From contig JACPTF010000002.1 in the NCBI GenBank assembly GCA_016192915.1, forward strand, positions 131,530 through 195,529: DNA of 64,000 nt, given 5' to 3'. The number at the start of each line of letters is the position of its first letter. Position 1 is the first letter of the stretch. Origin of the DNA: Candidatus Woesearchaeota archaeon. Its GTDB lineage: Archaea > Nanobdellota > Nanobdellia > Woesearchaeales > UBA10216. The position numbers and the translations under genes are program-made. Of this stretch, positions 1,125-59,428 are shown piece by piece. The notes under the pieces are model-generated. The model had not been told where the DNA came from, ran no database searches, and saw only the letters and a program-made list of their open reading frames with translations.

Positions 1125-4100
1125 CTACCCAAACCACTTCCCAAGCCCTTCCTGCTTCTCCTTATCCCTTCCAAATACAGACTCAACCCTCTTTTTTGTA
1201 AGGTCCAGAACCTGCAAGAGGTAGGGTGAAACAGCGTACTTGCCGGCAAGGCTGATTGCAGGCTCAAGGTACTTTATGATAGAGCCTTCGGAGATGGTAA
1301 AAAGGATTTTGCCGCTGCATTGGTCACAGACTCCGGCAAGGGGGGGCCTCCTGAATTTTGTGTTGCATTTGATGCACCTGAATTGTTGGGTTGAGAATTT
1401 CCTAAGGTTGCCGCGGACGTCCTTAAGGAGATGCTTTTCTATAACCAGCCTGGCAACGTCCTGCGCGTCAACGGCCCGTATTTTTTCGGCAAGAGCCATC
1501 TGGCCCTTAAGCTTCTCCTCCATTGAAGGGATGGTTTTGTAGGCAGAACATGTAACCCCTATATTGATGCTGGAAAGAGTATGCGTAAAGCCAACCCCTT
1601 CATATTGCTTAGGCGTGTTAAGGCGGGAACCAAGCAGCTCAATCTTAACATCCTGGGGCTGCTTCCACTGCATCGCTGCCTCGTACAGCTCAAGAGGGTA
1701 GTGCCATGCGACATCAAACCTGTGGGCCATGTCATCGACTTCGGCAGGAATAAGCCTTGAAGTCAGGACAAGAGGGCTATCCATTGTCTTTGCACCTCTC
1801 GAATCAGGGAGGAACTGCCTCGAGAAGTTAATAAGCGCGTCAAGCAGAAGGATGACACACGCCTCATCACCATCAGCGTCCCTTCTCATTGCAGCGTGGA
1901 AAAGAGGATGGGCGAAGAAAGCCTGGGTGCTCGAAAAACCCACTATCCTGCCAACAATTCCCGCAGATATGTGCGGGGCAAGCCCTATGACGAGATGCCC
2001 GACAAGGTCCTCTTTTGAATCAAGCCTGTAAAACGGCTCTTCCTTGTAAAATTTCATGAGAAGCTCATCAACAAACTGGGAAATCCTGAAGAGAACGGCA
2101 TCAGAGCTTTCGTCAGTTGAATCGGGGCTGGAAGGAAGAATAACATCCTGGGGCTTCAGCTCGAGCACCTGATGCTCTCCTGTGAGGGGAGTGCCATGAA
2201 TGTCCATTCTGTAGCCAAGGGCTAAAAGCTTCTGGACAGGTGTTCTGACTTCGGCTGGCGTAAAATGAGTCAGGGGAAGCTCGCTCATATCATAACGGAC
2301 AGTGCCGTCTTTGTTAACACACAGCTCGTGCTTGGCCCGGAGCACCCCCTTTGCAAGGTTTTCGGGGGTGTGATTCTTGTTTGAAGTGCCCCTGACTCCC
2401 TTAATTAGGTCAGAATGGGTTGTTTCTGCAAGTGTTTTAAGGGCCACATCTAAAAAATGCTTTATTTGCAGAGGCCTTGTTGAGTAAGTTTTGTTGGCGT
2501 GCGGGCACTTTTCAATAACGCCACACTTCTCGCAGAAAAGCATCCTTTTTGTTTTATTGCCGCAGTTCTCACAAACAGGATATATTGTCTGGGAATTGCA
2601 GCTTGGGCAGGCAGCAATCGGGAAATCAGCTGTCACCTTCCCTGCAGCAATAGCTTCCTGAAAAGAGCGAAGGCGGCCGCCTTCATCACCAACAGGGAAA
2701 AGAACGTGGGGGCTTCCCGTAAGCTTTCGCATCTTTGCCTTCTCAGGCCTGCCCATCCTTGCACCGATAAAAGTGCCTCCCTTGTCCCTCACCTGAAAAA
2801 CAGAAAGCTTTCTTACAAGGTCCAAACCGGTTTGCGGTTGCTGCAAATCGGCAGTAGCCGATTCAGCATCGGCAGCAGCCGATGCGTATCGACCCGAGGT
2901 CGATAGCACATTCCGCATTGCGGAATTGTGCTGTAGCTGCGATGGCTGAACTGCCGAAATTGAAGCACTAATGATGCTTGCCTTCCCCGAAATGACATCA
3001 GAAAACGAGGCTGATGTTTCAGTTGAAAAGAGGAGGGTTCTAACATCAATTCCCAACTGGAGCAGGAGCATTATGACGTCGTTGTGGGCTACAACAACAA
3101 ACTCATTATTAACAAAAAGGTGGGGGAGGCCTAAAAGTTCGAGGGCCCTCTTGCCTGTTTTATCCTGTGAGGAAGACCCGGCAGAAACTACGAGTTTAAC
3201 CTTCCCCACCTCAAAAATAAGCCGTGCCTTTGCAAGAAGGTTAAGCATGGCAACAAACTGCCCGCTATCCAGTGCTGACCAAAAATAAGTGTAAAATGGG
3301 TGGATTGGAACGGCGAGGGCTTCACAAAAGCGAATCGCGGCTTCGGCAGAAGGCTTTTCAAAAGGCGGGGAAAGCAACGCCTGAACTTCGTGCTCTGGCA
3401 GCAAAAGCGCGCTTGCGGCATAGGCAAACGTAAAAGCCCCAAACTTATCGAGCACTGACTTTTTGGCTTCTTCAGCGAACCATTCTTCACAGTACCCCGG
3501 GGGCACAAGCATATGGGCTCGGTCAAAGAAATCACCGTACGAGATAAGAAGGTCGCCCAGGTAAAGAATCTCAGAGACAAATGGTGCTTGCGCTCGGGCA
3601 GTGCTTTCAGAGTCAAACCTGGCAACAGAGCCATCCATCAAGCGAACAATAGGGCCATCTATCGAATCGCAAGGGGTTATTGCCGCGGCTTTGCCGGGGC
3701 GTTCAACCTTAAGCTGGGTTCCTGTGGCAACAAACCTGTCGAGTACAATCATGGTTGCAGGGCTAATGCCTGCAGCAGAATAGCCGCTTGCGCGAGTCTT
3801 GCCGTACCTCAGCCTAAAACCGCCGTGCCTGAGAGGGTGCGTTATGACAGGCCTGCCTGCAACAAGGTCTGAAATAAAAGTGTAATCGGGAGCGAGTTTC
3901 TTGGAATCATCGCTTTTCTCCTTGCTCATGCTTTTCTTTTTCTTTTGCAAGGCAATAAACTTCTCAAGAAAGGACCAGTCAATGTCAAAACCGCCTTTTA
4001 ACTGGATGCGCTTCAGCTCCTTCCAAAGTTTGGGTGCCTTAAAGGCAAGCATTGAAACAACAAGGCACACCCCTCCCCTAATCCTGTTGGTGCTTACTCT

Positions 4101-4829
4101 TGGAAGGTCTTTGTAATTGCTGACCTCAAACTTCTCAGTAGGATCACCATCAACCTCGATTGGGCAGTTTTTAACCAAAAACTCAATCTCATCCTCGCTA
4201 GCCTTGTACTGGAGGTTTGTAATGCGCTCATGGTAATCATCAAGCTCCGAAACAAAACGCTTAGCCTCAAGCTCGTCAGGATCGTAAGCCTCAAAGCCTG
4301 CCCTTCTTCTGAGAAAATCAGCTATAACAAGGCAAAAAGCGGCTGCTGTGCCGCCTGCCCCCCTTATAGGCCCTGCAAAAACAGCTGCAAAGTAATCCTT
4401 GCCATCCTTTCGCTTCTTAATCTTAAGCTCAATAAAGCCCTCAAGAGGCGCAGAAACAACGCCAGTCGTATGATAAGCAAATCCAACCCTGATGCCTGTT
4501 TCCAAGGCTTCACGCTTGTCCTTAAACGAACAGAATTTGCCATCTGCAACCTCGGCTGCGATTGTCAGGGCAACTTCCCAGGCAAGTGCGCCATACTGCC
4601 TCTCCAGATCCTGAATCCTTTCAGCAACACCACCCCCGGCCAGGGCCGGAACTACGGCAGAGACAAGGCCAACGACCCTCTCGGCAAGGTTTGATGCAAG
4701 AGGAATATCAACGACAGGCTCAGGATCCTGCCCTTTTGACCTAGCACTCTTCGCAACAGCATAACAACGCCTAAGCTTTTCATCAATCTCCAGAAAGTAC
4801 TCATCAATTTCAGTGCTCGTGCCTTTCAT
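1125..4829 (-). CDS. polD: DNA polymerase II (PolD) large subunit DP2, carrying an in-frame repeat-element insertion (see findings)
   Basis: 1234 aa containing the conserved GARMGRPEKA segment and Cys clusters (CPSCN...CENCG, CEKCG...C). It lies in the canonical cdc6-dp1-dp2 arrangement. Confidence 0.93.
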   Translation of the reverse strand: MKGTSTEIDEYFLEIDEKLRRCYAVAKSARSKGQDPEPVVDIPLASNLAERVVGLVSAVVPALAGGGVAERIQDLERQYGALAWEVALTIAAEVADGKFCSFKDKREALETGIRVGFAYHTTGVVSAPLEGFIELKIKKRKDGKDYFAAVFAGPIRGAGGTAAAFCLVIADFLRRRAGFEAYDPDELEAKRFVSELDDYHERITNLQYKASEDEIEFLVKNCPIEVDGDPTEKFEVSNYKDLPRVSTNRIRGGVCLVVSMLAFKAPKLWKELKRIQLKGGFDIDWSFLEKFIALQKKKKSMSKEKSDDSKKLAPDYTFISDLVAGRPVITHPLRHGGFRLRYGKTRASGYSAAGISPATMIVLDRFVATGTQLKVERPGKAAAITPCDSIDGPIVRLMDGSVARFDSESTARAQAPFVSEILYLGDLLISYGDFFDRAHMLVPPGYCEEWFAEEAKKSVLDKFGAFTFAYAASALLLPEHEVQALLSPPFEKPSAEAAIRFCEALAVPIHPFYTYFWSALDSGQFVAMLNLLAKARLIFEVGKVKLVVSAGSSSQDKTGKRALELLGLPHLFVNNEFVVVAHNDVIMLLLQLGIDVRTLLFSTETSASFSDVISGKASIISASISAVQPSQLQHNSAMRNVLSTSGRYASAAADAESATADLQQPQTGLDLVRKLSVFQVRDKGGTFIGARMGRPEKAKMRKLTGSPHVLFPVGDEGGRLRSFQEAIAAGKVTADFPIAACPSCNSQTIYPVCENCGNKTKRMLFCEKCGVIEKCPHANKTYSTRPLQIKHFLDVALKTLAETTHSDLIKGVRGTSNKNHTPENLAKGVLRAKHELCVNKDGTVRYDMSELPLTHFTPAEVRTPVQKLLALGYRMDIHGTPLTGEHQVLELKPQDVILPSSPDSTDESSDAVLFRISQFVDELLMKFYKEEPFYRLDSKEDLVGHLVIGLAPHISAGIVGRIVGFSSTQAFFAHPLFHAAMRRDADGDEACVILLLDALINFSRQFLPDSRGAKTMDSPLVLTSRLIPAEVDDMAHRFDVAWHYPLELYEAAMQWKQPQDVKIELLGSRLNTPKQYEGVGFTHTLSSINIGVTCSAYKTIPSMEEKLKGQMALAEKIRAVDAQDVARLVIEKHLLKDVRGNLRKFSTQQFRCIKCNTKFRRPPLAGVCDQCSGKILFTISEGSIIKYLEPAISLAGKYAVSPYLLQVLDLTKKRVESVFGRDKEKQEGLGKWFG

Positions 4830-4888
4830 TTTGGTTTATACCCCACTGCTTGCGGTGAATGAGTAAGTTTATGCCAATCATCAGTTGC

Positions 4889-6481
4889 CTACTTGCCAAA
4901 ATTAATAATCTTTGTAGCTCTTGTTTTCAAATTAAACACAGGCAGCCTTGAGGGTTGCGGGTTGTGCCCAAGGCGCTCCTGAAACTTTGTCTTTCCCTGC
5001 CAGCAGGAGCTGTTAATAAGGGCAATGCCCTTATAATCTGATACAGACGTGCGGTGTATGTGGCCGGTAGCGAATATGTCAGGCACAATTCCGATAAACA
5101 ACGGGTCAGATGCACGGTCAGGAAGTATCAATGTGGAAGTGTGGGCTGGCGCAAGGTGCCTCCGCTGCAGCAGAAATTTCATGATCATGTCAGCCCGCTC
5201 ATAACCTCCTTGGCGCCTTATGGAATCAACATTGGCAACATAATAGTCAAAGCTGTAGCCGTGGTAAAGCAACACGTCAAAGCCGGAAAAATTTTCTGAA
5301 GCATCGATGTTGACAATGGCAGGATTTGAAACAAGAACGGCGTTTGGCAGCTTGAGCAGGGGGGCTGCAAAATCGCCGGAAAAAGCTGCCTGAGGCTCTG
5401 CCGCCCTAACAGCATCGTGATTGCCTGGGGAGATGATTATTTTGATATGCCCAGGTATCTCTGAAAGAAAATCAGCACACATCCTGTACTGCTCTGTGGC
5501 GTCCTTAACTGAGAGCTCATCATACTGGTCCTGGTAAACTCCGACGCCGTCAACAACATCACCGGCAATAAGCACATATTTTACCTTGCTTGCAATCTCC
5601 TTCTGAACCGGATTGCCTAAGCCTCCATTAATCCACTTCAAAAATTTCCTAAAATCTTCCTCAAGAAACTGCGAAGAACCAATATGGAGATCTGACATAA
5701 AAACAGCGTAGCCCTCGTTGGGAGAATGTTTTTGCTCCCTTAAAGGGACATCTGGCAGAACAATGTTTGACGCAAAAAGCGCTCCGTTACGGAAATTGCC
5801 AGTGATCGCTATGACTTCATCAAACACAAGGTCTTGGGCAAGATTAAATATCTCTCTGCGCGTCTTGTTGACAATAACGTTGGTGACTCCTGTAGGGTCC
5901 TCAAGCACAACAACCTGGTGGCCTTGCTTCGTCTGCTGTTTGCCCTTCACCATGCCTATAATTGCAACAGACTCTGCAGCCCCCCCATTCTTGAGGCGGC
6001 TGATTTGCACAAGGTTTGCAAGCTCAGGCCTTGGAGACAAAATGCCCCGGATTGCCTTATAACGGGCAGAGTAATAGCCGACAAAATCACTAACCTCTCT
6101 TTTCGCAGGGGATGCCGCATAAGAGAACACGACCTTGACCGGCGAATCGTCAATTGCTGCAGCCCCGGCCGCTTTTCTAACCCCCCATTGATTCTGAGAA
6201 AAAAGCGTTTCTAGAAATGCGGCATAAACTTCAGGCTTCTGCTTCTTTTCTGAAAGAACCCTGTAACGCTCAAGCTCGAGCCAGTTAACATCAGGCTCGT
6301 TCCTCTTTAAAAGGAGGCCAACATCCTTGTTAACAACCAGAAAGCTGCCGGAAGTGCTATTGATGAGGCTTTGAATATCAAGCGGGCTTGCCTGCTCAAT
6401 CACATCCAAAAAATCAGGGCTGACAAGGATGTTCTGCCTGAGTAGTTCATCTACGCCACTTCGCTTCTTATCAATAGCCAA
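4889..6481 (-). CDS. DNA polymerase II (PolD) small subunit DP1 (Mre11-like phosphoesterase)
   Basis: 530 aa with calcineurin-like phosphoesterase motifs (GDVVDG, GNHD, GHIH) and an N-terminal DP1 domain. Located between cdc6 and dp2. Confidence 0.9.
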   Translation of the reverse strand: MAIDKKRSGVDELLRQNILVSPDFLDVIEQASPLDIQSLINSTSGSFLVVNKDVGLLLKRNEPDVNWLELERYRVLSEKKQKPEVYAAFLETLFSQNQWGVRKAAGAAAIDDSPVKVVFSYAASPAKREVSDFVGYYSARYKAIRGILSPRPELANLVQISRLKNGGAAESVAIIGMVKGKQQTKQGHQVVVLEDPTGVTNVIVNKTRREIFNLAQDLVFDEVIAITGNFRNGALFASNIVLPDVPLREQKHSPNEGYAVFMSDLHIGSSQFLEEDFRKFLKWINGGLGNPVQKEIASKVKYVLIAGDVVDGVGVYQDQYDELSVKDATEQYRMCADFLSEIPGHIKIIISPGNHDAVRAAEPQAAFSGDFAAPLLKLPNAVLVSNPAIVNIDASENFSGFDVLLYHGYSFDYYVANVDSIRRQGGYERADMIMKFLLQRRHLAPAHTSTLILPDRASDPLFIGIVPDIFATGHIHRTSVSDYKGIALINSSCWQGKTKFQERLGHNPQPSRLPVFNLKTRATKIINFGK

Positions 6482-6544
6482 GCTGCCCCACTCCGTCCTT
6501 TTGAAAATGCCACATTGTGTTAAATAAATATCACATTGGATAAA

Positions 6545-7753
6545 TCAAAGGTTTAAAGACTCTTCCAAGATTCTCTTGACGGCAGGTGTTGTTGCCTGCT
6601 GGGCAAGCATAATCTCCCTTGTACGGCCATACCTGCCTTTAGAGATGACCCTTGCCGTAATAATGCCAAGCATGTCAAACTCAGACAAAATATCAGATAG
6701 GCGGCGCTGGGTGAGGGGCCTTAAACCAACCTCTACACAGTACTTCTTATACATCTCGTAAACCTCACCAGTAAAAATAAACTTGTTGGTGCCATTGCTG
6801 ATAGAGACAACAGAGTACAAAACCAGCTGGGCCTGCCTGGGCTGTGTTATAACCAAATCAACTATTTTGTCCTTCTCGATCTTTTCCTCTGCAGCATCAA
6901 CATCAGAGATTCCCACAGTAGCAACACTTCTCCTGTCAGCCAACTCTCCAGCCACCCTTAACAACTCAAGTGCCCTGCGGGCATCACCGTGCTCCCTCGC
7001 AGCAAAGGCGGCACACTTCTCTACCACACCAGACTCAACAGCCCCCTTCCTGAAAGCAATAGCAGAACGGCTGAGCAGAAGGTCCTGCAGCTGAAGGGCA
7101 TTGTATGGGGGGAACAAAAGTTCCTCTTCAGAAAGGGATGATTTCACCCTCGGATCGAGATTATCAACAAACAACAAATCATTGGAAATTCCTATTAATG
7201 AAATTTGTGAGTTTTTAAGTTCTTCGTTTATTCTTGTGAGGTTGTATAAAACATCATCGCCGGCCTTTTTCACAAGCTGATCAATCTCATCCAAGATAAG
7301 AATCACAAGCTGTTTCTCTGAGTCAACAGTAGAAAAAAAAGCCTTATAAATATCCTCGGTGGGGAGACCTGTGGATGGGAGGGGCTTGCCAAGTTGCCTC
7401 GCGAGGCTTGCAATAAGCCTGTATTCGGTGTCTGCAACGTTCTTGAGCTTGCAGTTAACATAAATCTTTTGCAAAGAAACAGATTCGTTTTTGGCAACAA
7501 AAACCAACCTGTCTGTGGTGTGTTTCACTGTAAGGGTTTTGCCTGTGCCGGTTTTGCCATAAACAAAAAGGTTAGAAGGTCTTTCAAACCGCAAAGCAGG
7601 CGCAATTACAGAGGCAATCTGACGCACCTGGTCATCACGGTGAACAATCTCATCAGGAACGAAAGCGACCTGGAGTGATTGTTTATTGACAAACACAGAC
7701 TCTTTTTTAAGATAGTTTTGAAAAAAAACATCAAGGTTTTTTTCCTTCGCCAC
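6545..7753 (-). CDS. cdc6: Orc1/Cdc6 replication initiator, probable GTG start at 7753; the longer ORF to 7897 is a low-complexity extension
   Basis: Walker A GKTGTGKT, Walker B ILDEID and a C-terminal winged helix. The typical N-terminus ...KESVFVNKQSL...VPDEIVHRDDQ begins about 48 codons inside the maximal ORF, where an in-frame GTG is preceded by GGTGGTGAG. Confidence 0.85.
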   Translation of the reverse strand: MAKEKNLDVFFQNYLKKESVFVNKQSLQVAFVPDEIVHRDDQVRQIASVIAPALRFERPSNLFVYGKTGTGKTLTVKHTTDRLVFVAKNESVSLQKIYVNCKLKNVADTEYRLIASLARQLGKPLPSTGLPTEDIYKAFFSTVDSEKQLVILILDEIDQLVKKAGDDVLYNLTRINEELKNSQISLIGISNDLLFVDNLDPRVKSSLSEEELLFPPYNALQLQDLLLSRSAIAFRKGAVESGVVEKCAAFAAREHGDARRALELLRVAGELADRRSVATVGISDVDAAEEKIEKDKIVDLVITQPRQAQLVLYSVVSISNGTNKFIFTGEVYEMYKKYCVEVGLRPLTQRRLSDILSEFDMLGIITARVISKGRYGRTREIMLAQQATTPAVKRILEESLNL

Positions 7754-8016
7754 AATCTCACCACCATTTCCTATGGAAAAGCACAGAGCTCCCTTAATAA
7801 AAATTTTGATTGTGAAAAATATACAATCAAAAACAACATCAGAACTATTCGACGAAAAACAACAAAACACACCATTAATTCTATATTGAATTATCATAAA
7901 CCTGTTTGGTTTTGGGTAGTGGTTTCCACAAGAAACTAAGGGGTGATGGGGGTTTTGTTACTCATAAATAATAAAAAAAGGAAAGGTTTAAATATGGCGT
8001 TTCATTCCCACCCCCT
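7754..8016. promoter_or_regulatory. candidate replication origin (oriC) with ORB-like element and AT-rich DUE
   Basis: ORB-like TTCCACAAGAAAC followed by a G-string (GGGGTGATGGGGG) at 7924-7952, a dyad TTTCCTATGGAAA at 7766-7780, and AT-rich stretches at 7795-7840 and 7960-7995. All of this lies immediately upstream of cdc6 in the cdc6-polD cluster, where Pyrococcus keeps its origin. Confidence 0.5.
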
Positions 8017-8817
8017 ATGTTGATGCAGAACGAGATAATTAACCAACTGAAAGATATTGGGTTGAATAGCTACGAATCTAAACTGTGGCTCGCGTTACTG
8101 TCAAAAGGGATTGCCGCTGCCGGTGAGCTTTCTGATATTGCTAATGTTCCCAGGAGCAGGAGCTATGATGTTTTGGAGAGTTTGGAAAAGAAGGGGTTTA
8201 TAATTCTGAAGATTGGCAAGCCGATAAAGTACATTGCGGTGCCGCCCGGCCACGTCATTGATATTGTCAGGAAGAAACTGATAGAGGATGCAGATAATCA
8301 TGATAAATTTTTGAGTAAAATTGAGCAAAGCCCACTCATTGATGAACTGAAAGGTGTTTATAAAAGTGGCATAAGGGAGATTGACCCCCTTGAGCTTACA
8401 GGCAGTGTACGGGGCAGGAAAAACCTTTACCATCATCTTGACAGGATGATAAAAAATGCCGAGAAGAGTGTTATAATAATGACTACGTCTTCAGGCATTT
8501 TGAGAAAAAAGAATGCCTTAAGCACAGCCTTTAAGAAGGCAAAGGAAAGGCGGGTGAAAATAAAGATTGCAGCCAACATTACAAATGATGTCAGACCCCA
8601 GATTGAAGAGCTGGCAGGCCTTGTTGAGCTAAGGCAGGCAAACACCCCAGCAAGATTTTGTGTTGTTGATGGGAAAGAAGTCGTGCTTATGCCTCTTGAT
8701 GACGAACTCACAAACCCCGCGTCTGACGTCGGAATTTGGGTGAGGTCTAAATTTTTTGCTTCAACTTTCGAGAAGATGTTTGAGGTAGCATGGCCAACAC
8801 TCAAGCAGGCGTTTTAG
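8017..8817 (+). CDS. TrmB-family transcriptional regulator (paralog 1)
   Basis: N-terminal HTH ...SYESKLWLALLSKGIAAAGELSDIANVPRSRSYDVLESLEKKGF..., a TrmB signature, plus a C-terminal effector-like domain. Confidence 0.8.
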   Translation: MLMQNEIINQLKDIGLNSYESKLWLALLSKGIAAAGELSDIANVPRSRSYDVLESLEKKGFIILKIGKPIKYIAVPPGHVIDIVRKKLIEDADNHDKFLSKIEQSPLIDELKGVYKSGIREIDPLELTGSVRGRKNLYHHLDRMIKNAEKSVIIMTTSSGILRKKNALSTAFKKAKERRVKIKIAANITNDVRPQIEELAGLVELRQANTPARFCVVDGKEVVLMPLDDELTNPASDVGIWVRSKFFASTFEKMFEVAWPTLKQAF

Positions 8818-50948: not shown

Positions 50949-51389
50949 TCACTTGCTACCGGTGCTTCCGAATCCGCCCCGTGCCTTGCCCATTTGGTCT
51001 TTCTCGTCCCACTCAAACTTATCTACTTTGACAAAGATGCCCTGTGCCACCCTCTCGCCTTTGTCAACCCTGACAATGTTATCTGTGTTGTTGTAAACCT
51101 GAACTTTTACCTCATCGCCCTCGCCGCAGTAGTCGTTGTCTATAACGCCAATACCGTGCGGCTTAATCAGCCCTTTCTTCCTTGGAGTTGAGCTTCGCAG
51201 CGCCACCAGCAGCATGTAGCCAGGCGGCGTTTCGACAATTATGTTGCCGGGAATGAGTGCTATCTGCCGAGGCTGTATCTCCATATCCTCCCTTGAGTAA
51301 ATGTCAAACCCTACCGAGCCAGAGGTCTGGTAAACCGGCAGCGGCAGTGATTTATCAACGCGCTTTATCTTGACTTTCATATTGGACAA
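50949..51389 (-). CDS. dut: dUTP diphosphatase (trimeric dUTPase)
   Basis: GVIDNDYCGE and C-terminal RGGFGSTG motifs. Confidence 0.85.
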   Translation of the reverse strand: MSNMKVKIKRVDKSLPLPVYQTSGSVGFDIYSREDMEIQPRQIALIPGNIIVETPPGYMLLVALRSSTPRKKGLIKPHGIGVIDNDYCGEGDEVKVQVYNNTDNIVRVDKGERVAQGIFVKVDKFEWDEKDQMGKARGGFGSTGSK

Positions 51390-51414: not shown

Positions 51415-52023
51415 TTACCCTTTTTCTGTCTGCGTTCTTGTTATTGAAAATTTTCCTTCCATTCTTCTATACCATTCTTTGGCCATATCCCACCTGTTTG
51501 TTTTCCCATCAATGAAATATAAGAATGCGGAAAACATAATATTTTCCCAGTCACCTGCCGCACCCGGAATCGGTATATTATCTAACCCTTCGTAAAATCC
51601 AAATAAGCTAGAAATACCTATTGCTAAAAATGGAAATCGAATAGGTCTGGTAAATGTGAAAAAGAGCGTTCCAGGAATATTTTTCACATCATCAAATTTT
51701 GTTGAAAACATCCTTATCCTCGGGGTTAAATAGAAAGGGTACGCGACTAAGTTGAAAAAAGCATCCCCTGCTTTGAATAATGCCGATTTAACGTTTCGCG
51801 GTTCGCTTAGCCAATAACCTGCCATACTGGCGCCGGCCATAAGACCTCCGCCTATGATGACCGCCTGCGCTACTTGATACCTGTCAACACCAGTCTTGCT
51901 TATTAGCGAAGCCAACCCATCAACAGCTGTTTTGACTGTTCGGTCAGGCAGCAGTAAAGCATTCCAGGCAATGTCGCCTAGTTTTTTCTCAATGCCCATC
52001 ACTAAAAGGGAAGTAGAATCCAT
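51415..52023 (-). CDS. hypothetical membrane protein
   Basis: 202 aa with hydrophobic segments. Confidence 0.4.
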   Translation of the reverse strand: MDSTSLLVMGIEKKLGDIAWNALLLPDRTVKTAVDGLASLISKTGVDRYQVAQAVIIGGGLMAGASMAGYWLSEPRNVKSALFKAGDAFFNLVAYPFYLTPRIRMFSTKFDDVKNIPGTLFFTFTRPIRFPFLAIGISSLFGFYEGLDNIPIPGAAGDWENIMFSAFLYFIDGKTNRWDMAKEWYRRMEGKFSITRTQTEKG

Positions 52024-52031
52024 TTAAAAAA

Positions 52032-52478
52032 TTACTTCTTTATCAGCTTCTTCAGTTCCTTCTCAAAGCTCTCGAGGTCGGCAAATTCCCTGTAGACAGA
52101 AGCAAATCTGATGTAGGCAACCTTGTCGAGCTTTTTGAGCTTCCTCATAACCAATTCGCCGACATGGCTGCTGCTTAGTTCTTTTTTCTCCTCGTTTCTT
52201 AGCTCGGCCTCTATCTCGTCAACTGCGTGGTCTATCTTTTCCTGCGGTATGGGCCTTTTCTCGCAGGCCTTAGTCATGCCGCTTCTGAGCTTCTCGCGGT
52301 TGAACGGCTCCCTTCTTCCGTCCTTTTTCACAACAACAAGGTCAAACGGCTCAATCCGTTCGTAAGTCGTAAAGCGCTTTTTGCAGCGAAGGCACTCTCT
52401 CCTGCGCCGTGTTGCCTCGTTTGCCTCGCGCTTGTCAACAACCCTGTGCTCTTCGTTTCCGCAGTAGGGGCAGTTCAT
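52032..52478 (-). CDS. nrdR: transcriptional repressor NrdR (Zn ribbon + ATP-cone)
   Basis: MNCPYCG...C..C zinc ribbon. C-terminus ...LRSGM...KLKKLDKVAYIRFASVYREF is nearly diagnostic of NrdR. Confidence 0.9.
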   Translation of the reverse strand: MNCPYCGNEEHRVVDKREANEATRRRRECLRCKKRFTTYERIEPFDLVVVKKDGRREPFNREKLRSGMTKACEKRPIPQEKIDHAVDEIEAELRNEEKKELSSSHVGELVMRKLKKLDKVAYIRFASVYREFADLESFEKELKKLIKK

Positions 52479-52493
52479 GGTATTTTCGAAGAA

Positions 52494-53042
52494 TCAGTCT
52501 CGGTTATAGTATTTATAAGTTGGCTTTTCCTCTTTGATGTTGCCCTTCTTGTTCTCAACCCTTGCCATTACATGGAAAAGCGACGAGAGCCTGTTGGCGT
52601 ATTTCAGCAGAAACGGGTTGGTTTCCTCTTTTTTTGCCAGCCTTACAAGCTGCCTTTCGGCCCTTCTGGATACTGTTCTTGCAAGGTGGAGCAGGGCTGC
52701 TTCTTTGTTGCCTCCTGGGAAGATAAATGACCTTTGCGGCTCCAGGGATCTTTCAGCATCGTCAATTATTTTTTCTATGCGTTCAACGTGTTTTTCCGTA
52801 ATCCTAGGCATGTTGTCTATTACCGCAGCGATTTCAGCGCATATGGTGTGTATGTCGTCCTGTACTGTCTTGAGAAGGCTCATTGCGTCTTCTGAGTCAG
52901 AAAATGTCCCGGCAACCCCAACAACGGCGTTGAGCTCGTCAAAGCACCCGAGAACCTCTATCCTTGTATCATCCTTTTCTATGTTGCATCTTCCGATTAT
53001 GGATGTTGTCCCGTCATCCCCTATGCACGTGTAGCATGCCAT
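52494..53042 (-). CDS. PduO-type ATP:cob(I)alamin adenosyltransferase
   Basis: DDGTTS...R...ELNA...D and a C-terminal helical-bundle pattern of the PduO/MMAB family. Confidence 0.75.
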   Translation of the reverse strand: MACYTCIGDDGTTSIIGRCNIEKDDTRIEVLGCFDELNAVVGVAGTFSDSEDAMSLLKTVQDDIHTICAEIAAVIDNMPRITEKHVERIEKIIDDAERSLEPQRSFIFPGGNKEAALLHLARTVSRRAERQLVRLAKKEETNPFLLKYANRLSSLFHVMARVENKKGNIKEEKPTYKYYNRD

Positions 53043-53065
53043 TTTTTATCGTTTTTTGGTTGAGC

Positions 53066-53129
53066 CGCAAGTCGCTAGCAACTGCGCACAGTCGAGCTAT
53101 GCTCGACTTGTGTTTTTGCTTGCAAAAAG
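53066..53129. repeat. multi-hairpin repeat element, copy C
   Basis: CGCA(A)GT/ACTGCG, CAGTCGAGC/GCTCGACTTG (bulged A) and TTTTTGC/GCAAAAA. Same module types as copy A. Confidence 0.6.
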
Positions 53130-53130
53130 G

Positions 53131-53247
53131 TCATGAGCAAATCCCCCAGCCGCATGCCTCGTCTTTGCAGCTGAAGCAGGTGCCTTCGCTTTTGATTTCC
53201 TTTTTGACATGCCCTCCACAGTTCGGGCATTCGGTTACGTCTTTCAT
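53131..53247 (-). CDS. small zinc-ribbon protein (about 38 aa), paralog of the RNR C-terminal zinc ribbon
   Basis: MKDVTECPNCGGHVKKEIKSEGTCFSCKDEACGWGIC resembles the RNR tail ...CQSCGKKTLKIENGCHSCLNEDCGFSKC. Confidence 0.45.
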   Translation of the reverse strand: MKDVTECPNCGGHVKKEIKSEGTCFSCKDEACGWGICS

Positions 53248-53270
53248 TTTCGTAAGGTGGATTTCTTTGG

Positions 53271-56200
53271 TTAAACTTCGCACTTGCTGAATCCGCAGTC
53301 CTCGTTGAGGCAGGAGTGGCAGCCGTTTTCTATCTTCAGTGTTTTCTTGCCGCATGATTGGCAGTTGCTGAGCTTCATGTCTGAAGCATAAATCTCCTTG
53401 CCGTTTCCATGCGCTTCGTGAGTTTCTTTTTTTTCAGCTGCAACAGCCACTGTTGCGAGAGGTTCGCTTACAAAATTATCCACGGCCTTTGTGAAGAGGT
53501 ACCTGTTGCCTTCCTTTTTCAGCAGGCCATTTCTCAAGGCGTGGTATGCGGTGGTGAGCCTGCCGTTTGGGAGCCCTATGACATCGTCTCCGTGAAGCAG
53601 CTTTTGCTCGCCGTCAATCTCGACATCGTGGATTTGCTCTTTGCTGTCTTGGAACTCAGACTCGTGGGTTTCTGTGCTTAGTATGGGGAATCTTGAGCCT
53701 TCCCTGTATATGGTTATGCCCTTGAGCCCGTGCTTCCAGGCATCAAGGTAAATGTTTGATATTGTTTCCGGGTCAATGTCCTCTGGCAGGTTGACTGTTG
53801 AGGAGATGCTGTGGTCTATGTATTTCTGCCATAGCCCCTGCACCACCACTCTTTTGCTCGGGTCTATGAAGTGCGCTGTCCTGAAGAAGTGCGCTGGCAA
53901 TATTCGCTTCAGCTCTTCAGCATCCTTGCATTTCTGGGCTTCTTCAGCCAGGTTGTGCTGCTGTATGTAGCCGTCAACTGTAGAGTGGAATATTTTGAAG
54001 AACATGTTGCTCCCCCCTGAGCTGAGGCCCTCTGACCTTCTGGTGTAGTAAAGGGCAAACACAGGCTCTATCCCCCCGCTTACTCCGATAAAGTTCCTGT
54101 CTCCAAGCCTGTAGCCAAGCACTATGTTTGATATTGTCCCTGTTGGGGCTATTGAGAGTATTGCGACGTTTCTGAGCCCTTTCTTCCTTATCGTTTCTTT
54201 CGTCTCATCAGTTAGTATTTCCTGGAAGAACCTTCCCCTGCTGTATGCCTCATACTCGAATATTGGCGATGGCGTTTTTTCCTCTGCCAGCTCAGCTGAT
54301 GCGTCGTATGCAGTGTTTGCGAAAAGCTTTGCGGCTTCTTCGAGTATCTTTATCCCTTTTTCGCTGTCATACCCTGTTCCGAGCTGGTTGAGCATGTCTG
54401 CTATGCCCATAACGCCAAGCCCGAGCCTTCTTGTTTCGTAAGCTGCCTTTCTTTGCTTTTCAAGCGGATTTAGAAGCTCGTTCCACGTTACAACATTGTC
54501 AAGGAACCTTACAGACAGTGCTGTTGTGTCCTTAATGCCTTCCCAGTCTATCCCTGCATTGTCCGTATATCCGTTCACAACAAACCTTGACAAGTTTACT
54601 GAAGCCAGGTTGCACGCCCCTCCGTCTTCAAGAGGAACCTCTCCGCAGTTGTGCACGACGATGCCGTTGGCTATGAAAGAGTGCGTTATTGGCTCTTGCA
54701 GGTCATAAACTTCTTTTAACCCATTAGCGTTTATGCTGCTAATGTTGTCATATGTGCTCCTGCCTTCTCTATTTGTTAAAATTTTGTTGCCGGCAGTAAG
54801 ATTCCTGGCTTCTGCCCAACCCCCGGTCGTCATTACCTTATGGTCTTTAGTGCATACCAGTTCAAAACCCTTCTGTGTTGTTATTTTCAGCGTGTCCTTC
54901 TCTCCTGTTTTAATTGCGGCAGCTATGGGAAGTAATATTTTGCCCTCTAGTACTAAGCCGTTGCCTGGCAGCATCCTGGCATCTACAGCCACATTTACCC
55001 CGCCATTGCCGTAGTTTTCAGCAATTTCCTTAATTGTCATGATTCCATTATCTGTTTCTATTTTGGTGTCGCCAGCAACGCAAGGGTTTGTGCTGGCTAT
55101 CGGCCTTCCGACGTAGTTGGATGGCGAATACTTTACCATGGTGCTCCAGAATATGAGCCCTGGCTCAGCTGTCTTGTAGTTTCCCTCTATGAATGCGTTC
55201 CATATTGTCCTTGCCTTTACCAGGCGCTTTATCTCGCCTGTTTCCCTTGCGTTATAGTAAAGCATGAAGTCCCCTGCGTGCTTTATGGCAAGGTCGAATT
55301 CTGAGCTCCTGTCATGTACTACGAAATCCCCAAACATGTCCCTTTTTGACACATCAGTGAGGTCTTTCTCTGTTATTGCCTCTGAGTTGTGCCCTGTAAG
55401 GAAGCTGTTAAGCTCTTCAAAGGTATCAAATGCCTTCATCAGCCTGTACTTTTCTATTGGCTTTGCAGGAATTCCATACGAATAGTGCACTGCCCCGCCC
55501 TGCATGATTCCGAGTCCTGATACGCTTTTGTCTTTCAGGTAGACGAGTACCTTTTCTGTGCCGTATTTGTTCTGCTCTTCTACTGCCTGCATGAACTCAT
55601 CAGTTACTTTCAGGCTGATATTGGCAAACCTGACCTGCGTGTTCTCCCTTACCTGCCGTTCTACGTCCCTTAGCTGCTGCTCGTTGAACTTGCCTGACCA
55701 TTTGCACTGCTCCACTATCTGGTTTGTTACCCAGTTCGGTACCTTCTTCACGTTGATGAAGTGCGGGCTGTCAGGGTGCTTTATGTCAATCGTCAGCATC
55801 AATGCCCCCCTTCTTCCTGACTGGCCAATCAGCCCTGTTGTTAATGAAAATAATTCCATGAATGAAACGCTTCCTGTTGACGTATCTGCAGCATTATGGA
55901 CTATCGAGCCCTTCGGCCTCAACCCAGAGATGTCCACCCCGATGCCCCCTCCATAGGAGTATGTCCTTGCGCATTCATACGCAGACTGGTATATGGCTTC
56001 TATATTATCCTCTGAAATCAGTGATACAAAGCAGTTTGCCAGTGTCTTCAGCCTGTAAAGGTCCCCCCCGCCTGCTATGACCCTGCCTCCCGGCACAAAA
56101 TAGCCCTCGTACAATGCCCTGTAGAATCTTGCAGCCCACTCCCTTTGCTTTTCTGGCGTTGGCTCAACAGCGGCCATGAAGGCAGCCAGCCTTGAGTAAA

Positions 56201-56804
56201 CGTCTTCCGGCCTTTTCTCTATCAGCTTGTTGTTGATGTCCTTAAGGTAGTATTTTTTCTGGAATATGCTGGTTGCCAGCTCGTTGCCGTTAAGGTAGTC
56301 TCCTGGGTGTAGGGGCAGTTCGCCTGTCTTTTGCAGTTCCTTAATGTAGAATAGAAGGTTCTTGTATGCCTCAATCCTGTCATATCCTATGATTGATGCG
56401 AGCTTGCTTTTGTGTGCGAACATGTCAAGCAGCGCTGTCTTTTCCCCATCAGTCCCTTTTGCTGCCTCTGTCGCAGCCTGCCTTAGCTCTGCCCTTTTAG
56501 CCCTGTAAAGTATGTATGCTTTTGCGGTTTTTGCGTGGCCTTCTTCTATGAGTACTTTTTCAACAGCATCCTGTATTTCTTCAACTGATGGCAGCTTTTC
56601 TATTTTTGCCACATAATCAACAACAAGCCTTGTGAGCCTTTCTGCCTCTTTCCTGTCGCTTCCTCCAACAGCCCTTGCGGCTTTCATTATGGCAGATGTT
56701 ATCTTTTCAGGGTCAAAATCAGCCACCCTTCCGTCCCTCTTTACAATCTTGGAAACTTTTGTAACTATTACAGTTTTCCCCGTTTCAGAAGCCTTTGGTG
56801 TCAT
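53271..56804 (-). CDS. nrdJ: ribonucleoside-diphosphate/triphosphate reductase, class II-like (ATP-cone, NPCGE active site, C-terminal Zn ribbon), interrupted by a mini-intein
   Basis: N-terminal ATP cone (VKRDGRVADFDPEKI) and active-site STNP|C...HN|CGEVPL split by an intein. C-terminal CxxC...CxxC. PduO and NrdR lie directly downstream. Confidence 0.85.
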   Translation of the reverse strand: MTPKASETGKTVIVTKVSKIVKRDGRVADFDPEKITSAIMKAARAVGGSDRKEAERLTRLVVDYVAKIEKLPSVEEIQDAVEKVLIEEGHAKTAKAYILYRAKRAELRQAATEAAKGTDGEKTALLDMFAHKSKLASIIGYDRIEAYKNLLFYIKELQKTGELPLHPGDYLNGNELATSIFQKKYYLKDINNKLIEKRPEDVYSRLAAFMAAVEPTPEKQREWAARFYRALYEGYFVPGGRVIAGGGDLYRLKTLANCFVSLISEDNIEAIYQSAYECARTYSYGGGIGVDISGLRPKGSIVHNAADTSTGSVSFMELFSLTTGLIGQSGRRGALMLTIDIKHPDSPHFINVKKVPNWVTNQIVEQCKWSGKFNEQQLRDVERQVRENTQVRFANISLKVTDEFMQAVEEQNKYGTEKVLVYLKDKSVSGLGIMQGGAVHYSYGIPAKPIEKYRLMKAFDTFEELNSFLTGHNSEAITEKDLTDVSKRDMFGDFVVHDRSSEFDLAIKHAGDFMLYYNARETGEIKRLVKARTIWNAFIEGNYKTAEPGLIFWSTMVKYSPSNYVGRPIASTNPCVAGDTKIETDNGIMTIKEIAENYGNGGVNVAVDARMLPGNGLVLEGKILLPIAAAIKTGEKDTLKITTQKGFELVCTKDHKVMTTGGWAEARNLTAGNKILTNREGRSTYDNISSINANGLKEVYDLQEPITHSFIANGIVVHNCGEVPLEDGGACNLASVNLSRFVVNGYTDNAGIDWEGIKDTTALSVRFLDNVVTWNELLNPLEKQRKAAYETRRLGLGVMGIADMLNQLGTGYDSEKGIKILEEAAKLFANTAYDASAELAEEKTPSPIFEYEAYSRGRFFQEILTDETKETIRKKGLRNVAILSIAPTGTISNIVLGYRLGDRNFIGVSGGIEPVFALYYTRRSEGLSSGGSNMFFKIFHSTVDGYIQQHNLAEEAQKCKDAEELKRILPAHFFRTAHFIDPSKRVVVQGLWQKYIDHSISSTVNLPEDIDPETISNIYLDAWKHGLKGITIYREGSRFPILSTETHESEFQDSKEQIHDVEIDGEQKLLHGDDVIGLPNGRLTTAYHALRNGLLKKEGNRYLFTKAVDNFVSEPLATVAVAAEKKETHEAHGNGKEIYASDMKLSNCQSCGKKTLKIENGCHSCLNEDCGFSKCEV
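54648..55082 (-). other. mini-intein (145 aa, no homing endonuclease domain) within RNR
   Basis: Starts CVAGDTKIE (block A), has TKDH (block B) and ends ...GIVVHN followed by Cys +1. The host motif NP-CGE is restored after splicing. Confidence 0.8.
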
Positions 56805-57011
56805 CTTTCATTACCTCGCAATAAATACAACCTGTTGTGTACCTCTCCCGTCTAGAACCCCAATATGTTGTGGTTTTAGGATTCACACCTATTTAAAGGT
56901 TTTTGTGCCCAAAACTATATTAACCATAATTTATAATAGAATTTCTAGCTGGTGGTGGTGTAAATTCAAAAGCATCAATCGCAGTTGGTATAAGTTTTAT
57001 ATAAAACTCCA

Positions 57012-57823: not shown

Positions 57824-59428
57824 TCAGCTTTTGGTGTTAATGAACGGGCTTTGCGCTAATCTTGCTTTGTCCTGCTCAAGCAGCCCTGTGTTCGGGTAGT
57901 TCCAGTGGTAGCCTATTAAAGTCTTTTCCCAGTCGGCGGCTGTTGTTCCTGAATATCCATCAGGATGAGGCAGGTTTAAAGCGTGCCCAAGCTCATGGCC
58001 CAGTGCTCCTATTCCAAACCCCTCTGCCTTTCCTGATGGCAGCCAGCTGTTCTTGCAGCTATCCTTTGCATTTGGCGGGTTGTCTGTTGTGAAGTACTTA
58101 TCTAGAACCCTGTTGCAGTTGCCATCCTTGGCAGCATATATGCCCGCATCCCCCACTATCGCCAGTCCTCCTCCTGTTGGGTAAAATCTTCCTCCAGCAT
58201 ATCCTCCTCCTCCGAATGCCGCAACCCAGGTAACCCTGTTGGCAGGGAATTTGTTCCAGTCTGGCTCAACAGGGAAACCTTTTCTTTTCAGCTCATCTAT
58301 TATGCTTGCCTCAAAGTTGTTTTTGACACATCCTGCCTGGTTGTCCACGCACCAGTACCACTCGTGGCTATGGTCGCCGCTGACAACTTGCGGCTGCAGC
58401 ATTGTGAACGTAGTGCCTGCCTTAGTTAGGTAGAACTGCCTTATTTCCTCAAATTTGTCCTTCAGGTAATTTACCATATCCTGATCGTTGGCATAGTCTG
58501 TTGGGAAAAATATTACTGGTTGGACTTTATAGGATGTGTCAGCAGTTTTGCAGTTTCCAGCCATGCAAATCTGGCCTTGCTGGCATAGGCTGCCCTCATC
58601 CACTTGGCTATTGCAGTCATTGTCTTTGTTGTCGCATGCTTCTGCTGAAGGCTCAGTCTGGCCTGTGCAGCTTCCCCAGATGTGGCTGCTTTGGCAAACC
58701 TGAGTCCCCAACTTGCATAGTCCAACGTTGTTGTAGCCGCAGCTTTTTGTTTGTCCCGGGCTGCAATCACACGTTATGCCATCATCAGCCAATCCGTTGC
58801 AGTTGTTGTCCAAGCCATCGCATACCTCTGCTGTTGGGGTGCAGGTTGGTTGTGGCTGAGGCAGTGCCTGCTGCTGTGCCTGCTGTTGTTGCTGCTGGCT
58901 GACCTGCTGCCCTTGTGAGTTGCTTTCGCTTCCAGAGCTTCTTCTCACTCCTGAACCTTCTTCCTGGGCGGCTGTATCCTTTTTCTGCTCTTCAACCGCA
59001 CATTTGTTGTTATTGCAAAGCCCCGATGGGCATTCCCTATTGTTGCAGCACTCGTATTCCACACATGTCCTGTTGTTGGTGTAGCCGCACTCGCATTCTA
59101 TTTGTGCGCACTTGTTGGTGTTCACGCTGCACGTCTCGTTTTTGCCGCATTCTGCGTCAGCGCAGCATTCGTACTTGTGGCAGGTTTCGTTGGCAGCGTA
59201 TTCGCAATAGCCGCACGCGATGTTAGTGCAGGAATGATTTGTGCAGCTTTGGGAGGGGAGGCATCCTGTGTCTTCGCAGCAGTTTTGCGGCGTTTCGCCT
59301 TGCTCCAAAATGTCGTTGCCGCACCCTGCACGCTCACCGCTGTTTAGCAAAACCACTGTTGCCACTAGCAGTGGGGCAGCAAGCAGGCTATACAGGATTA
59401 TACCCGGAACCACTTTTGCTTTAAGCAT
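57824..59428 (-). CDS. secreted Cys-rich zinc metalloprotease (HExxHxxxxxH zincin)
   Basis: Signal-like N-terminus, repeated C-x-C EGF-like modules, a poly-Q linker and C-terminal HELGHALNLPH. Confidence 0.6.
   Translation of the reverse strand: MLKAKVVPGIILYSLLAAPLLVATVVLLNSGERAGCGNDILEQGETPQNCCEDTGCLPSQSCTNHSCTNIACGYCEYAANETCHKYECCADAECGKNETCSVNTNKCAQIECECGYTNNRTCVEYECCNNRECPSGLCNNNKCAVEEQKKDTAAQEEGSGVRRSSGSESNSQGQQVSQQQQQQAQQQALPQPQPTCTPTAEVCDGLDNNCNGLADDGITCDCSPGQTKSCGYNNVGLCKLGTQVCQSSHIWGSCTGQTEPSAEACDNKDNDCNSQVDEGSLCQQGQICMAGNCKTADTSYKVQPVIFFPTDYANDQDMVNYLKDKFEEIRQFYLTKAGTTFTMLQPQVVSGDHSHEWYWCVDNQAGCVKNNFEASIIDELKRKGFPVEPDWNKFPANRVTWVAAFGGGGYAGGRFYPTGGGLAIVGDAGIYAAKDGNCNRVLDKYFTTDNPPNAKDSCKNSWLPSGKAEGFGIGALGHELGHALNLPHPDGYSGTTAADWEKTLIGYHWNYPNTGLLEQDKARLAQSPFINTKS

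Follow-up and report, generated by a model that had tools for sequence, protein, structure and literature searches.

A probable NrdR-controlled class II ribonucleotide reductase operon with an archaeal promoter in a DPANN archaeon

The DNA analysed is a 64-kb window (the whole stretch of 64,000 nucleotides, contig JACPTF010000002.1), and the system under study is a group of four minus-strand genes, nrdJ-znS-pduO-nrdR, encoding a class II ribonucleotide reductase (RNR), a small zinc-ribbon protein, a PduO-type adenosyltransferase and the repressor NrdR. The open reading frame (ORF) listing of the window and family matches above their cut-offs place the four co-directional genes where an earlier note on this DNA had put them. 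The host is a very small archaeon from groundwater. The window also encodes PolD DP2/DP1, Orc1/Cdc6, TFE-alpha, Hjc, a tRNA-splicing endonuclease, FEN1, RFC, aRF1 and XPF. A protein with 100 % identity to PduO is encoded on a contig of 259,782 bp in an NCBI metagenome-assembled genome (MAG) of Candidatus Woesearchaeota, and a 1177-residue NrdJ with the same intein is encoded on that contig too. The locus is typical of its lineage, a class II RNR operon of DPANN under predicted NrdR control, and its parts are of known kinds. It can be regarded with good confidence as a native deoxynucleoside triphosphate (dNTP) supply operon of a DPANN (Woesearchaeota) archaeon that is repressed by its own NrdR, the module being DPANN's and not a recent import.

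Genes of the operon

The genes and their domains, in window positions, are listed below.

53271..56804, minus strand: nrdJ, class II (adenosylcobalamin-dependent) RNR precursor (TIGR02504, Pfam)
56490..56750, minus strand: N-terminal ATP-cone of NrdJ (residues 19-105), predicted dATP/ATP overall-activity site (PF03477, 84.2 bits)
54648..55082, minus strand: mini-intein of 145 residues (residues 575-719 of NrdJ), inserted between TNP and CGE (PF14890, TIGR01445)
53274..53378, minus strand: C-terminal six-Cys zinc ribbon at the end of the Cys-rich domain of NrdJ (CxxC-x10-CxxC-x4-C-x4-C)
53131..53247, minus strand: znS, free-standing paralogue of the NrdJ tail zinc ribbon, 38 residues (alignment to NrdJ tail)
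52494..53042, minus strand: pduO, PduO-type ATP:cob(I)alamin adenosyltransferase, short form of 182 residues (TIGR00636, PF01923)
52032..52478, minus strand: nrdR, repressor (TIGR00244, PF22811, PF03477)
52359-52478, minus strand: zinc ribbon of NrdR (residues 1-40; PF22811, 59.6 bits)
52077-52337, minus strand: ATP-cone of NrdR (residues 48-134; PF03477, 88.4 bits)

The intergenic gaps are 23, 88 and 15 nt in the window and 0-15 nt in relatives; the short gaps of the relatives make co-transcription likely, and the assignment of the four genes to one operon is supported. The gene order is kept in five related loci (L002, L003, L004, L007 and L008), whereas znS is missing from the operon in L005 and L015, and pduO in L006. 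The position of nrdR at the end of the operon is a trait of this clade, whereas the majority of other loci, DPANN and bacterial, have nrdR first, ahead of the RNR gene.

The NrdR protein matches TIGR00244 at 193.5 bits (cut-off 124.65) over residues 1-145 of 148, and aligns end to end with the solved NrdR proteins of E. coli (expectation value, E, 3.5e-41) and S. coelicolor (E 2.3e-31). Its zinc ribbon has the CxxC pairs C3/C6 and C29/C32, and D15, R17 and the RRRR motif, whose DNA-contact roles have been described (PMC9110341), are all kept, VVDKRE and TRRRRE aligning with VIDSRL and VRRRRQ of the E. coli protein. Nucleotide-dependent oligomerisation, DNA binding and repression are predicted for it.

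The NrdJ precursor has 1177 residues (1032 once spliced) and matches TIGR02504 NrdJ_Z at 473.5 bits (cut-off 399.95) in two stretches with the intein between them; the Pfam domains recognised are the ATP-cone, the RNR all-alpha domain and the RNR barrel. Orthologues with 80-87 % identity are present in Woesearchaeota and Nanoarchaeota MAGs, and no nrdB-like gene was noticed within the window. A class II enzyme with cofactor activation built into the operon, as proposed in the earlier note, is supported by the TIGR02504 match, the adjacent pduO and a Lactobacillus precedent described below, and dependence on adenosylcobalamin (AdoCbl) is predicted. The ATP-cone of NrdJ would have the allosteric role usual for its family.

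The earlier reading of nrdJ as an ATP-cone RNR with a C-terminal zinc ribbon stands, but the NPCGE active-site motif is not contiguous, being split by an intein which that reading had missed. The intein sits directly before the catalytic Cys of NrdJ, the ORF running from STNP into CVAGDTK at one junction and from GIVVHN into CGEVPLE at the other, and the hallmarks C1 (C575), a TxxH block (TKDH), a terminal HN and a +1 Cys can be read in the sequence. It matches solved mini-inteins (best E 5.6e-13), and its length of 145 residues together with the lack of a LAGLIDADG match for a homing-endonuclease domain marks it as a mini-intein. Six orthologues are without exactly these 145 residues and read STNPC(G/A)EVPLE (NPCGE or NPCAE). 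Because the intein is absent to the residue from these orthologues, the thiyl-radical Cys of NrdJ is predicted to be also the +1 nucleophile of the intein, the NPCGE loop forming only after splicing. An intein at the same site is found in 33 of the 120 best NrdJ homologue clusters, 14 of them with a mini form (140-147 residues) and 19 with a long form (349-403 residues), and most of the long-form homologues (more than ~1240 residues) have a PF14528 homing-endonuclease match in a precomputed domain table. The NrdJ intein is an element of a known kind and a common allele in this NrdJ clade. The public record HYY73_01140 labels this RNR a "hypothetical protein", apparently because the intein breaks the family match, and among the other homologues with an intein, several likewise go under "hypothetical protein" or have no more than "ATP cone domain-containing protein" as their label.

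The six-Cys pattern of the NrdJ tail is kept in all orthologues. A C-terminal Cys-rich zinc domain is present in ~70 % of NrdJ proteins; it binds zinc and is required for active-site re-reduction and turnover with non-dithiol reductants (PMC5704485).

The 38-residue paralogue of the zinc ribbon recognised in the earlier note is borne out by the alignment of ZnS with the last 34 residues of NrdJ (41 % identity, six of six Cys aligned, pairwise E 9e-7). The initiator Met of ZnS lines up with a conserved Met of the NrdJ tail (SDMKLSxC in NrdJ, MKxxTxC in ZnS), and znS therefore seems to have arisen by tandem duplication of the 3' end of nrdJ. The znS start codon usually lies 0-5 nt past the nrdJ stop codon, and this suggests translational coupling. 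Expression as a read-through or frameshift fusion of NrdJ and ZnS was also considered; the znS ORF continues the nrdJ frame in L002 and L003, whereas it lies in another frame in the window, L006, L007 and L008, an inconsistency which makes the fusion unlikely and favours independent, coupled translation. The gene is restricted to this clade, since a pattern search of all 80 loci gave no stand-alone six-Cys mini-protein outside it and a library of 1.8 billion proteins contained just two other stand-alone relatives, both small. So tiny a gene, confined to one clade, missing even there from two loci and with almost no relatives elsewhere, might be a functionless, decaying leftover of the duplication. 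Decay is nevertheless unlikely in view of a ratio of non-synonymous to synonymous substitution of 0.03-0.15 despite near-saturated synonymous change, and of the conservation of the six Cys, the start codon and the length in 7 clade genomes, with znS retained even in L006, where pduO has been lost. The gene is under purifying selection.

PduO, which the earlier note had also assigned correctly, matches TIGR00636 PduO_Nterm at 171.9 bits (cut-off 108.45) and PF01923 at 161.6 bits, matches solved PduO-type enzymes (E about 1e-29) and has the motifs YTxxGDxGxT and FxFPGG. Linkage of nrdJ and pduO is found also in L021 (an archaeon) and L055 (a bacterium of the candidate phyla radiation, CPR), and a nrdJ-cbrS-cbrT-pduO cluster, which includes an energy-coupling factor (ECF) transporter for vitamin B12, has been described in the B12-auxotrophic Lactobacillus delbrueckii (PMC5997447). 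It is reasonable to regard PduO as a sensible supplier of AdoCbl to NrdJ, and cofactor activation within the operon as an already known design. No transporter gene was recognisable in the window. In L003 a 185-residue membrane protein (7398-7955) is encoded between pduO and nrdR with a marginal match to PF07155 (28.4 bits, cut-off 26.7); the layout resembles the Lactobacillus nrdJ-cbrT-pduO cluster, which makes the protein a candidate ECF S-component for cobalamin. Several PduO orthologues (L004, L005, L007 and L008) have short Cys-rich C-terminal extensions (for example those ending CCNGLENCKSC, CCEQIK and CCQEPLKK), which are absent from the window PduO.

Predicted operator and promoter of nrdJ

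The non-coding DNA before nrdJ contains the following elements.

56890..56897, minus strand: archaeal TATA box TTTAAATA, predicted core promoter of the operon (perfect TTTAWATA)
56858..56873, minus strand: predicted NrdR box 1, CCACAACATATTGGGG (6/6 conserved consensus positions)
56841-56857, minus strand: linker between the NrdR boxes, 17 bp
56825..56840, minus strand: predicted NrdR box 2, ACACAACAGGTTGTAT (5/6 conserved positions)

On the coding strand the order is TTTAAATA, a 16-nt spacer, box 1, the linker, box 2, a GAGGT Shine-Dalgarno sequence and the ATG. Six positions of the NrdR box consensus are highly conserved (C4, A6, A8, T9, T11 and G13; PMC13584703), and the central AG of box 2 occurs also in the functional, validated box 2 of E. 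coli nrdAB (PMC13584703). The NrdR boxes, which had been suggested as a check in the earlier note and left unsearched there, were sought in the window with strict tandem criteria (C4 and G13 required, at least 5/6 conserved positions, at least 11/16 consensus matches, linker of 14-17 bp). The site upstream of nrdJ was the sole one in the window, and sites were present in 0 of 200 Markov-simulated windows. The same criteria applied to 970 kb of related loci gave 28 sites, every one of them (28/28) directly upstream of nrdR or of an adjacent RNR gene. A search of the rest of the window for further boxes, in front of PolD, Orc1/Cdc6 or dut for instance, gave relaxed hits at chance level only, none of them in a promoter.

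The TATA box TTTAAATA is conserved in six orthologous loci and in L015, box 1 in L002, L003, L006-L008 and L015, and box 2 is invariant across 7 loci. Both boxes have been kept in the six orthologous loci despite near-saturated synonymous sites.

Several features nevertheless weigh against this assignment, and would suit the alternative that these elements are not NrdR operators, being the site of another factor or an RNA element, with NrdR having lost or changed its target. Within the clade the linker and ~130 bp further upstream are as strongly conserved as the boxes, so other factors may bind there; the linker of 17 bp lies at the upper edge of the usual 15-16 bp; the centre of box 2 departs from the consensus, failing the published regular expression at position 9 (G, not A/T); and the loose six-position box score arises by chance (1.8 tandem hits expected per simulated window) and is not significant alone. 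The alternative is given little likelihood, since strict boxes occur across the 970 kb only upstream of nrdR or RNR genes, both boxes are kept in the more remote L015 although the linker there differs in sequence and in length (15 bp), the nrdJ leader is without a signal of RNA structure and the DNA-contact residues of NrdR are intact. An RNA element in the leader was rejected on the basis of no Rfam match at E<=1, a z-score of -0.21 and a consensus energy of -4.7 kcal/mol.

The predicted NrdR operator is set differently in archaeal and bacterial loci. In all eight bacterial loci retrieved with the same query, TTGACA ends 0-1 nt before box 1 or, in one, overlaps its first base, and the hexamer most like a -10 element is found in the early part of the linker (TATAAT without mismatch in three loci, 4/6 matches in the others), as has been described for bacteria. 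In 21 archaeal loci a TTTAWATA-like TATA box lies upstream of box 1, at a distance of 16-18 nt in 12 loci and of 26 nt in four. With the clade of the window entered once, a perfect TTTAWATA is present within 45 nt upstream in 10 of 16 independent archaeal NrdR operators (binomial P about 5e-18), against a background of 0.8 % in random windows and 5.5 % in the regions preceding long ORFs. A scan of the DNA for bacterial promoters and terminators gave counts equal to shuffled expectation. As read from the sequence, the promoter of the operon is of the archaeal TATA type and not of the sigma-70 type.

In archaea the start of transcription normally lies some 23-27 nt beyond the TATA box. With this spacing the transcription start is predicted near 56867, inside or just before box 1, and an NrdR tetramer on the boxes would occupy a place from which archaeal repressors typically prevent the recruitment of RNA polymerase. 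No discussion of NrdR boxes in archaeal promoters was found in the literature searched, a 2026 Microbiology and Molecular Biology Reviews (MMBR) review on NrdR lying outside it.

Upstream of the TATA box, ~115 bp of non-coding DNA (56898-57011, minus strand) are almost invariant in six genomes with near-saturated synonymous sites. This block contains TATGGCTAATATAGTTTTGGGCACAAAAACC and the two elements listed below.

56998-57005, minus strand: second TATA-like sequence, TTTATATA
56937-56947, minus strand: 11-bp palindrome, TAGAAATTCTA

The block has no Rfam match and no conserved ORF, a conserved small ORF having been rejected because insertions and deletions of 22 and ~28 nt among relatives break every frame, and it may be a second promoter, a site for another regulator or a small RNA. 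In L002 (about 3810-3840) and L006, and not in the window, a hairpin-forming insert, GGCATGACCTTTTTGGAAAAGGCCAATC, is present upstream of nrdJ; it looks like a small mobile repeat.

Origin of the module and neighbouring genes

The earlier note had suggested that the whole module might have been acquired laterally. The named best matches of NrdR, NrdJ and PduO are almost all DPANN archaea, in essence the result that the note had itself named as speaking against an unusual arrangement. NrdR relatives with 55-98 % identity belong to Woese-, Pace-, Nano-, Micr- and Aenigmatarchaeota and include a closed DPANN chromosome (L012, CP058998), in which nrdR lies beside an RNR or ATP-cone gene; bacterial NrdR proteins (CPR, Dehalococcoidia, Omnitrophota, Clostridia and Planctomycetes) appear from 52-61 % identity down. 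NrdJ and PduO show the same DPANN-first pattern. In a neighbour-joining tree of NrdR the DPANN sequences are grouped, with CPR Woyke- and Gottesmanbacteria nested inside and other bacteria apart; this tree is without support values and its sample is biased towards the query, which lessens its weight in favour of a DPANN module. In GC content, GC content at third codon positions (GC3) and codon usage the operon genes fall inside the range spanned by 15 other window genes, so that the compositional check proposed for a foreign operon gave no sign of one.

A recent acquisition of the whole nrdJ-pduO-nrdR module from bacteria would accord with the much wider occurrence of NrdR in bacteria (77 % of bacterial and 22 % of archaeal genomes; PMC13584703), with the acquisition of nrdR-nrdAB operons from bacteria by haloarchaea (PMC3019208) and with the presence of CPR sequences (Woykebacteria, Gottesmanbacteria, Spechtbacteria) among those of DPANN. 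Against it stand the closest relatives of all three proteins, which are DPANN down to about 60 % identity, the archaeal TATA promoter without -35/-10 elements, a composition matching that of the flanking archaeal genes and the conservation of the operon in at least eight related MAGs. The DPANN relatives, the matching composition and the published precedents for NrdR and for nrdJ-pduO together make a recent import very improbable. The CPR sequences among the DPANN ones make ancient exchange between CPR and DPANN likely, and an old gene pool common to both is plausible.

The arrangement is an ordinary one for DPANN archaea and not the unusual one that the earlier note took it to be: the nearest relatives are DPANN, most of them with nrdR beside an RNR gene and preceded by NrdR boxes and a TATA promoter, and in ~35 of the 45 archaeal-labelled contigs of the genome scan nrdR lies next to an RNR or ATP-cone gene. 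The related suggestion of an under-appreciated archaeal NrdR regulon is upheld as to the regulon, canonical tandem boxes being present before nrdJ, and is outdated as to the neglect, given that NrdR in 22 % of archaeal genomes is already published, although NrdR had earlier been called "absent" or "rare in archaea" (bioRxiv 10.1101/2025.03.28.645925; PMC9110341; PMC12176259).

The source is a MAG, and some related contigs have implausible taxon labels, as might be expected if a bacterial fragment had been joined to an archaeal contig in assembly or binning. Such an artefact is scarcely credible here, because archaeal genes flank the operon on both sides in the window, the composition is uniform, and the same arrangement was assembled independently in several samples and in the closed chromosome L012. 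The labels concerned are "uncultured Methanosarcinales archaeon" for L004, L009, L021 and L073 and "Spirochaetales bacterium" for L049; the NrdR and operon of these contigs are typical of Woesearchaeota/DPANN, and the labels are probably wrong.

The features downstream of nrdR are the following.

52026..52031, minus strand: T6 tract directly past the nrdR stop codon (read from sequence)
51415-52023, minus strand: orf202, a 202-residue ORF between nrdR and dut
50949..51389, minus strand: dut, dUTPase (TIGR00576, 113.3 bits)

The operon probably ends at the T6 tract, which probably also contributes to a TATA-like element serving the next gene. The dut gene follows nrdR in L001-L009 and L015, and because relatives have a separate TATA-like ATTTAAAA after nrdR, about 25 nt before the dut start codon, dut and orf202 are probably separate transcription units. 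The orf202 product has no Pfam, NCBIfam or PDB match, so that no link to B12 transport could be drawn. Its translation probably begins at Met9 (51999), with a TATA-like TTTTTTAAAT about 24 nt upstream. The gene is found only in the window and L008, has an unusually low GC3 (0.38) and is the sole outlier in the compositional comparison; it may be a recent insertion.

Further from the operon, the genes for PolD DP2, PolD DP1 and Orc1/Cdc6 are clustered (1125-8817) and followed by a divergent TrmB-family regulator, and a replication origin may lie beside Orc1/Cdc6; the cluster gave no NrdR box. Positions 57824-59428 (minus strand) encode a 534-residue Cys-rich protein, probably secreted, with MopE-like metal-binding repeats, a Gln-rich linker and a C-terminal HExxH-like metallopeptidase motif, which is conserved in L006.

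Proposed working of the operon and comparison with known systems

The operon is proposed to work as follows. Transcription would start from the archaeal TATA promoter. NrdR would sense the dATP/ATP ratio through its ATP-cone, and the dATP/ATP-loaded tetramer would bind the two 16-bp boxes over the predicted start and early leader and block the recruitment of RNA polymerase or promoter escape, so that the whole operon, nrdR included, would be repressed; this step is modelled on the bacterial mechanism and on the position of the operator. The NrdJ precursor, in which the anatomy of the 145-residue mini-intein is plain, would splice it out to give the NPCGE loop. PduO would adenosylate salvaged cobalamin and so provide AdoCbl for NrdJ, as its family and the known nrdJ-pduO linkage suggest. 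The ATP-cone of NrdJ would add dATP/ATP control at the level of the enzyme, and its C-terminal six-Cys ribbon would pass reducing equivalents to the active site (PMC5704485). The tail duplicate ZnS, selected and translationally coupled, is speculatively taken to work with NrdJ in trans.

Points on the other side, besides those raised for the boxes and the NrdR tree, are that the action of NrdR on archaeal DNA and promoters is predicted from sequence alone, that the transcription start comes from TATA spacing only, and that the T5 tract and hairpin in the 88-nt znS-pduO spacer might partly uncouple pduO-nrdR from nrdJ in the window genome. The role given to ZnS is a guess, and in-trans reconstitution of a much larger Cys-rich domain failed in vitro (PMC5704485). 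The spacer hairpin (53090-53108) is a perfect 8-bp one, AGTCGAGC-TAT-GCTCGACT, and relatives are almost without a spacer there.

It is speculated, with low confidence, that ZnS acts in trans with the redox relay of NrdJ as an extra shuttle or modulator. In a bolder proposal ZnS would be a new RNR accessory subunit, acting in trans to deliver reducing equivalents to the active site of the class II enzyme or to gate their delivery, and the NrdR regulon to which it belongs would extend across DPANN, with its operator shifted so as to block RNA-polymerase recruitment at TATA promoters; this proposal is tentative and, on balance, doubtful. What looks new at the locus is the place of nrdR at the end of the operon, the free-standing zinc-ribbon micro-protein and the setting of the NrdR operator relative to an archaeal TATA box.

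NrdR is under study as a bacteria-specific drug target and is still described in papers as rare in archaea or missing from them. At this locus and at those of its relatives across DPANN lineages, a complete, functional-looking NrdR system (repressor, tandem boxes and RNR) is combined with TATA promoters, and it offers a test case for a bacterial-type nucleotide-sensing repressor acting on the archaeal transcription machinery. An organism with a reduced genome, presumably a B12 salvager, here has the enzyme, the activation of its cofactor and its feedback control together in one unit. In practical terms the gain is a modest one and consists of a corrected RNR annotation, a defined operator and a candidate micro-protein partner of a class II RNR.

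Among known systems, the nrdRJ operon of Streptomyces coelicolor (PMC9110341) shares with this one a repressor with a zinc ribbon, an ATP-cone, D15, R17 and RRRR, two 16-bp partially palindromic boxes about three helical turns apart, and a class II RNR gene regulated in the same operon, which amounts to autoregulation. The present operon differs in its archaeal host, in nrdR being last and not first, in its 17-bp linker and in the additional znS and pduO genes. In bacterial NrdR regulons the boxes fill the spacer between the sigma-70 -35 and -10 elements, whereas here they lie downstream of the TATA box. The haloarchaeal nrdR-nrdAB/nrdBA operons (PMC3019208) likewise link an archaeal nrdR to an RNR operon, but they are class I, were judged to be bacterial imports and are sometimes on plasmids, whereas the present operon is class II, lies in DPANN and has DPANN-specific relatives.

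The Lactobacillus delbrueckii cluster (PMC5997447) resembles the present operon in bringing together a class II RNR and a PduO-type adenosyltransferase, in an organism dependent on salvage for its B12, and differs in being bacterial, in having no nrdR and in its transporter, of which the window has no recognisable gene. Inteins at RNR active sites (RIR1/NrdJ, e.g. NrdJ-1, PDB 8ubs) are likewise Hint domains within an RNR, with mini forms that have no endonuclease and with Cys as the +1 residue; the similarity of the present intein to the solved ones is distant (E 5.6e-13 to 5e-6). Its insertion site is presumably the same as that of the Mth RIR1 mini-intein.

For ZnS the nearest parallel is the split NrdJa and NrdJb of Pseudomonas aeruginosa (PMC5704485), in which a separate polypeptide with a six-Cys zinc motif is likewise encoded directly downstream of the catalytic gene. 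NrdJb is a complete Cys-rich domain of 150-220 residues that replaces a missing tail, whereas the NrdJ of the window keeps its complete tail and the 38-residue ZnS is an extra copy of the last ~35 residues.

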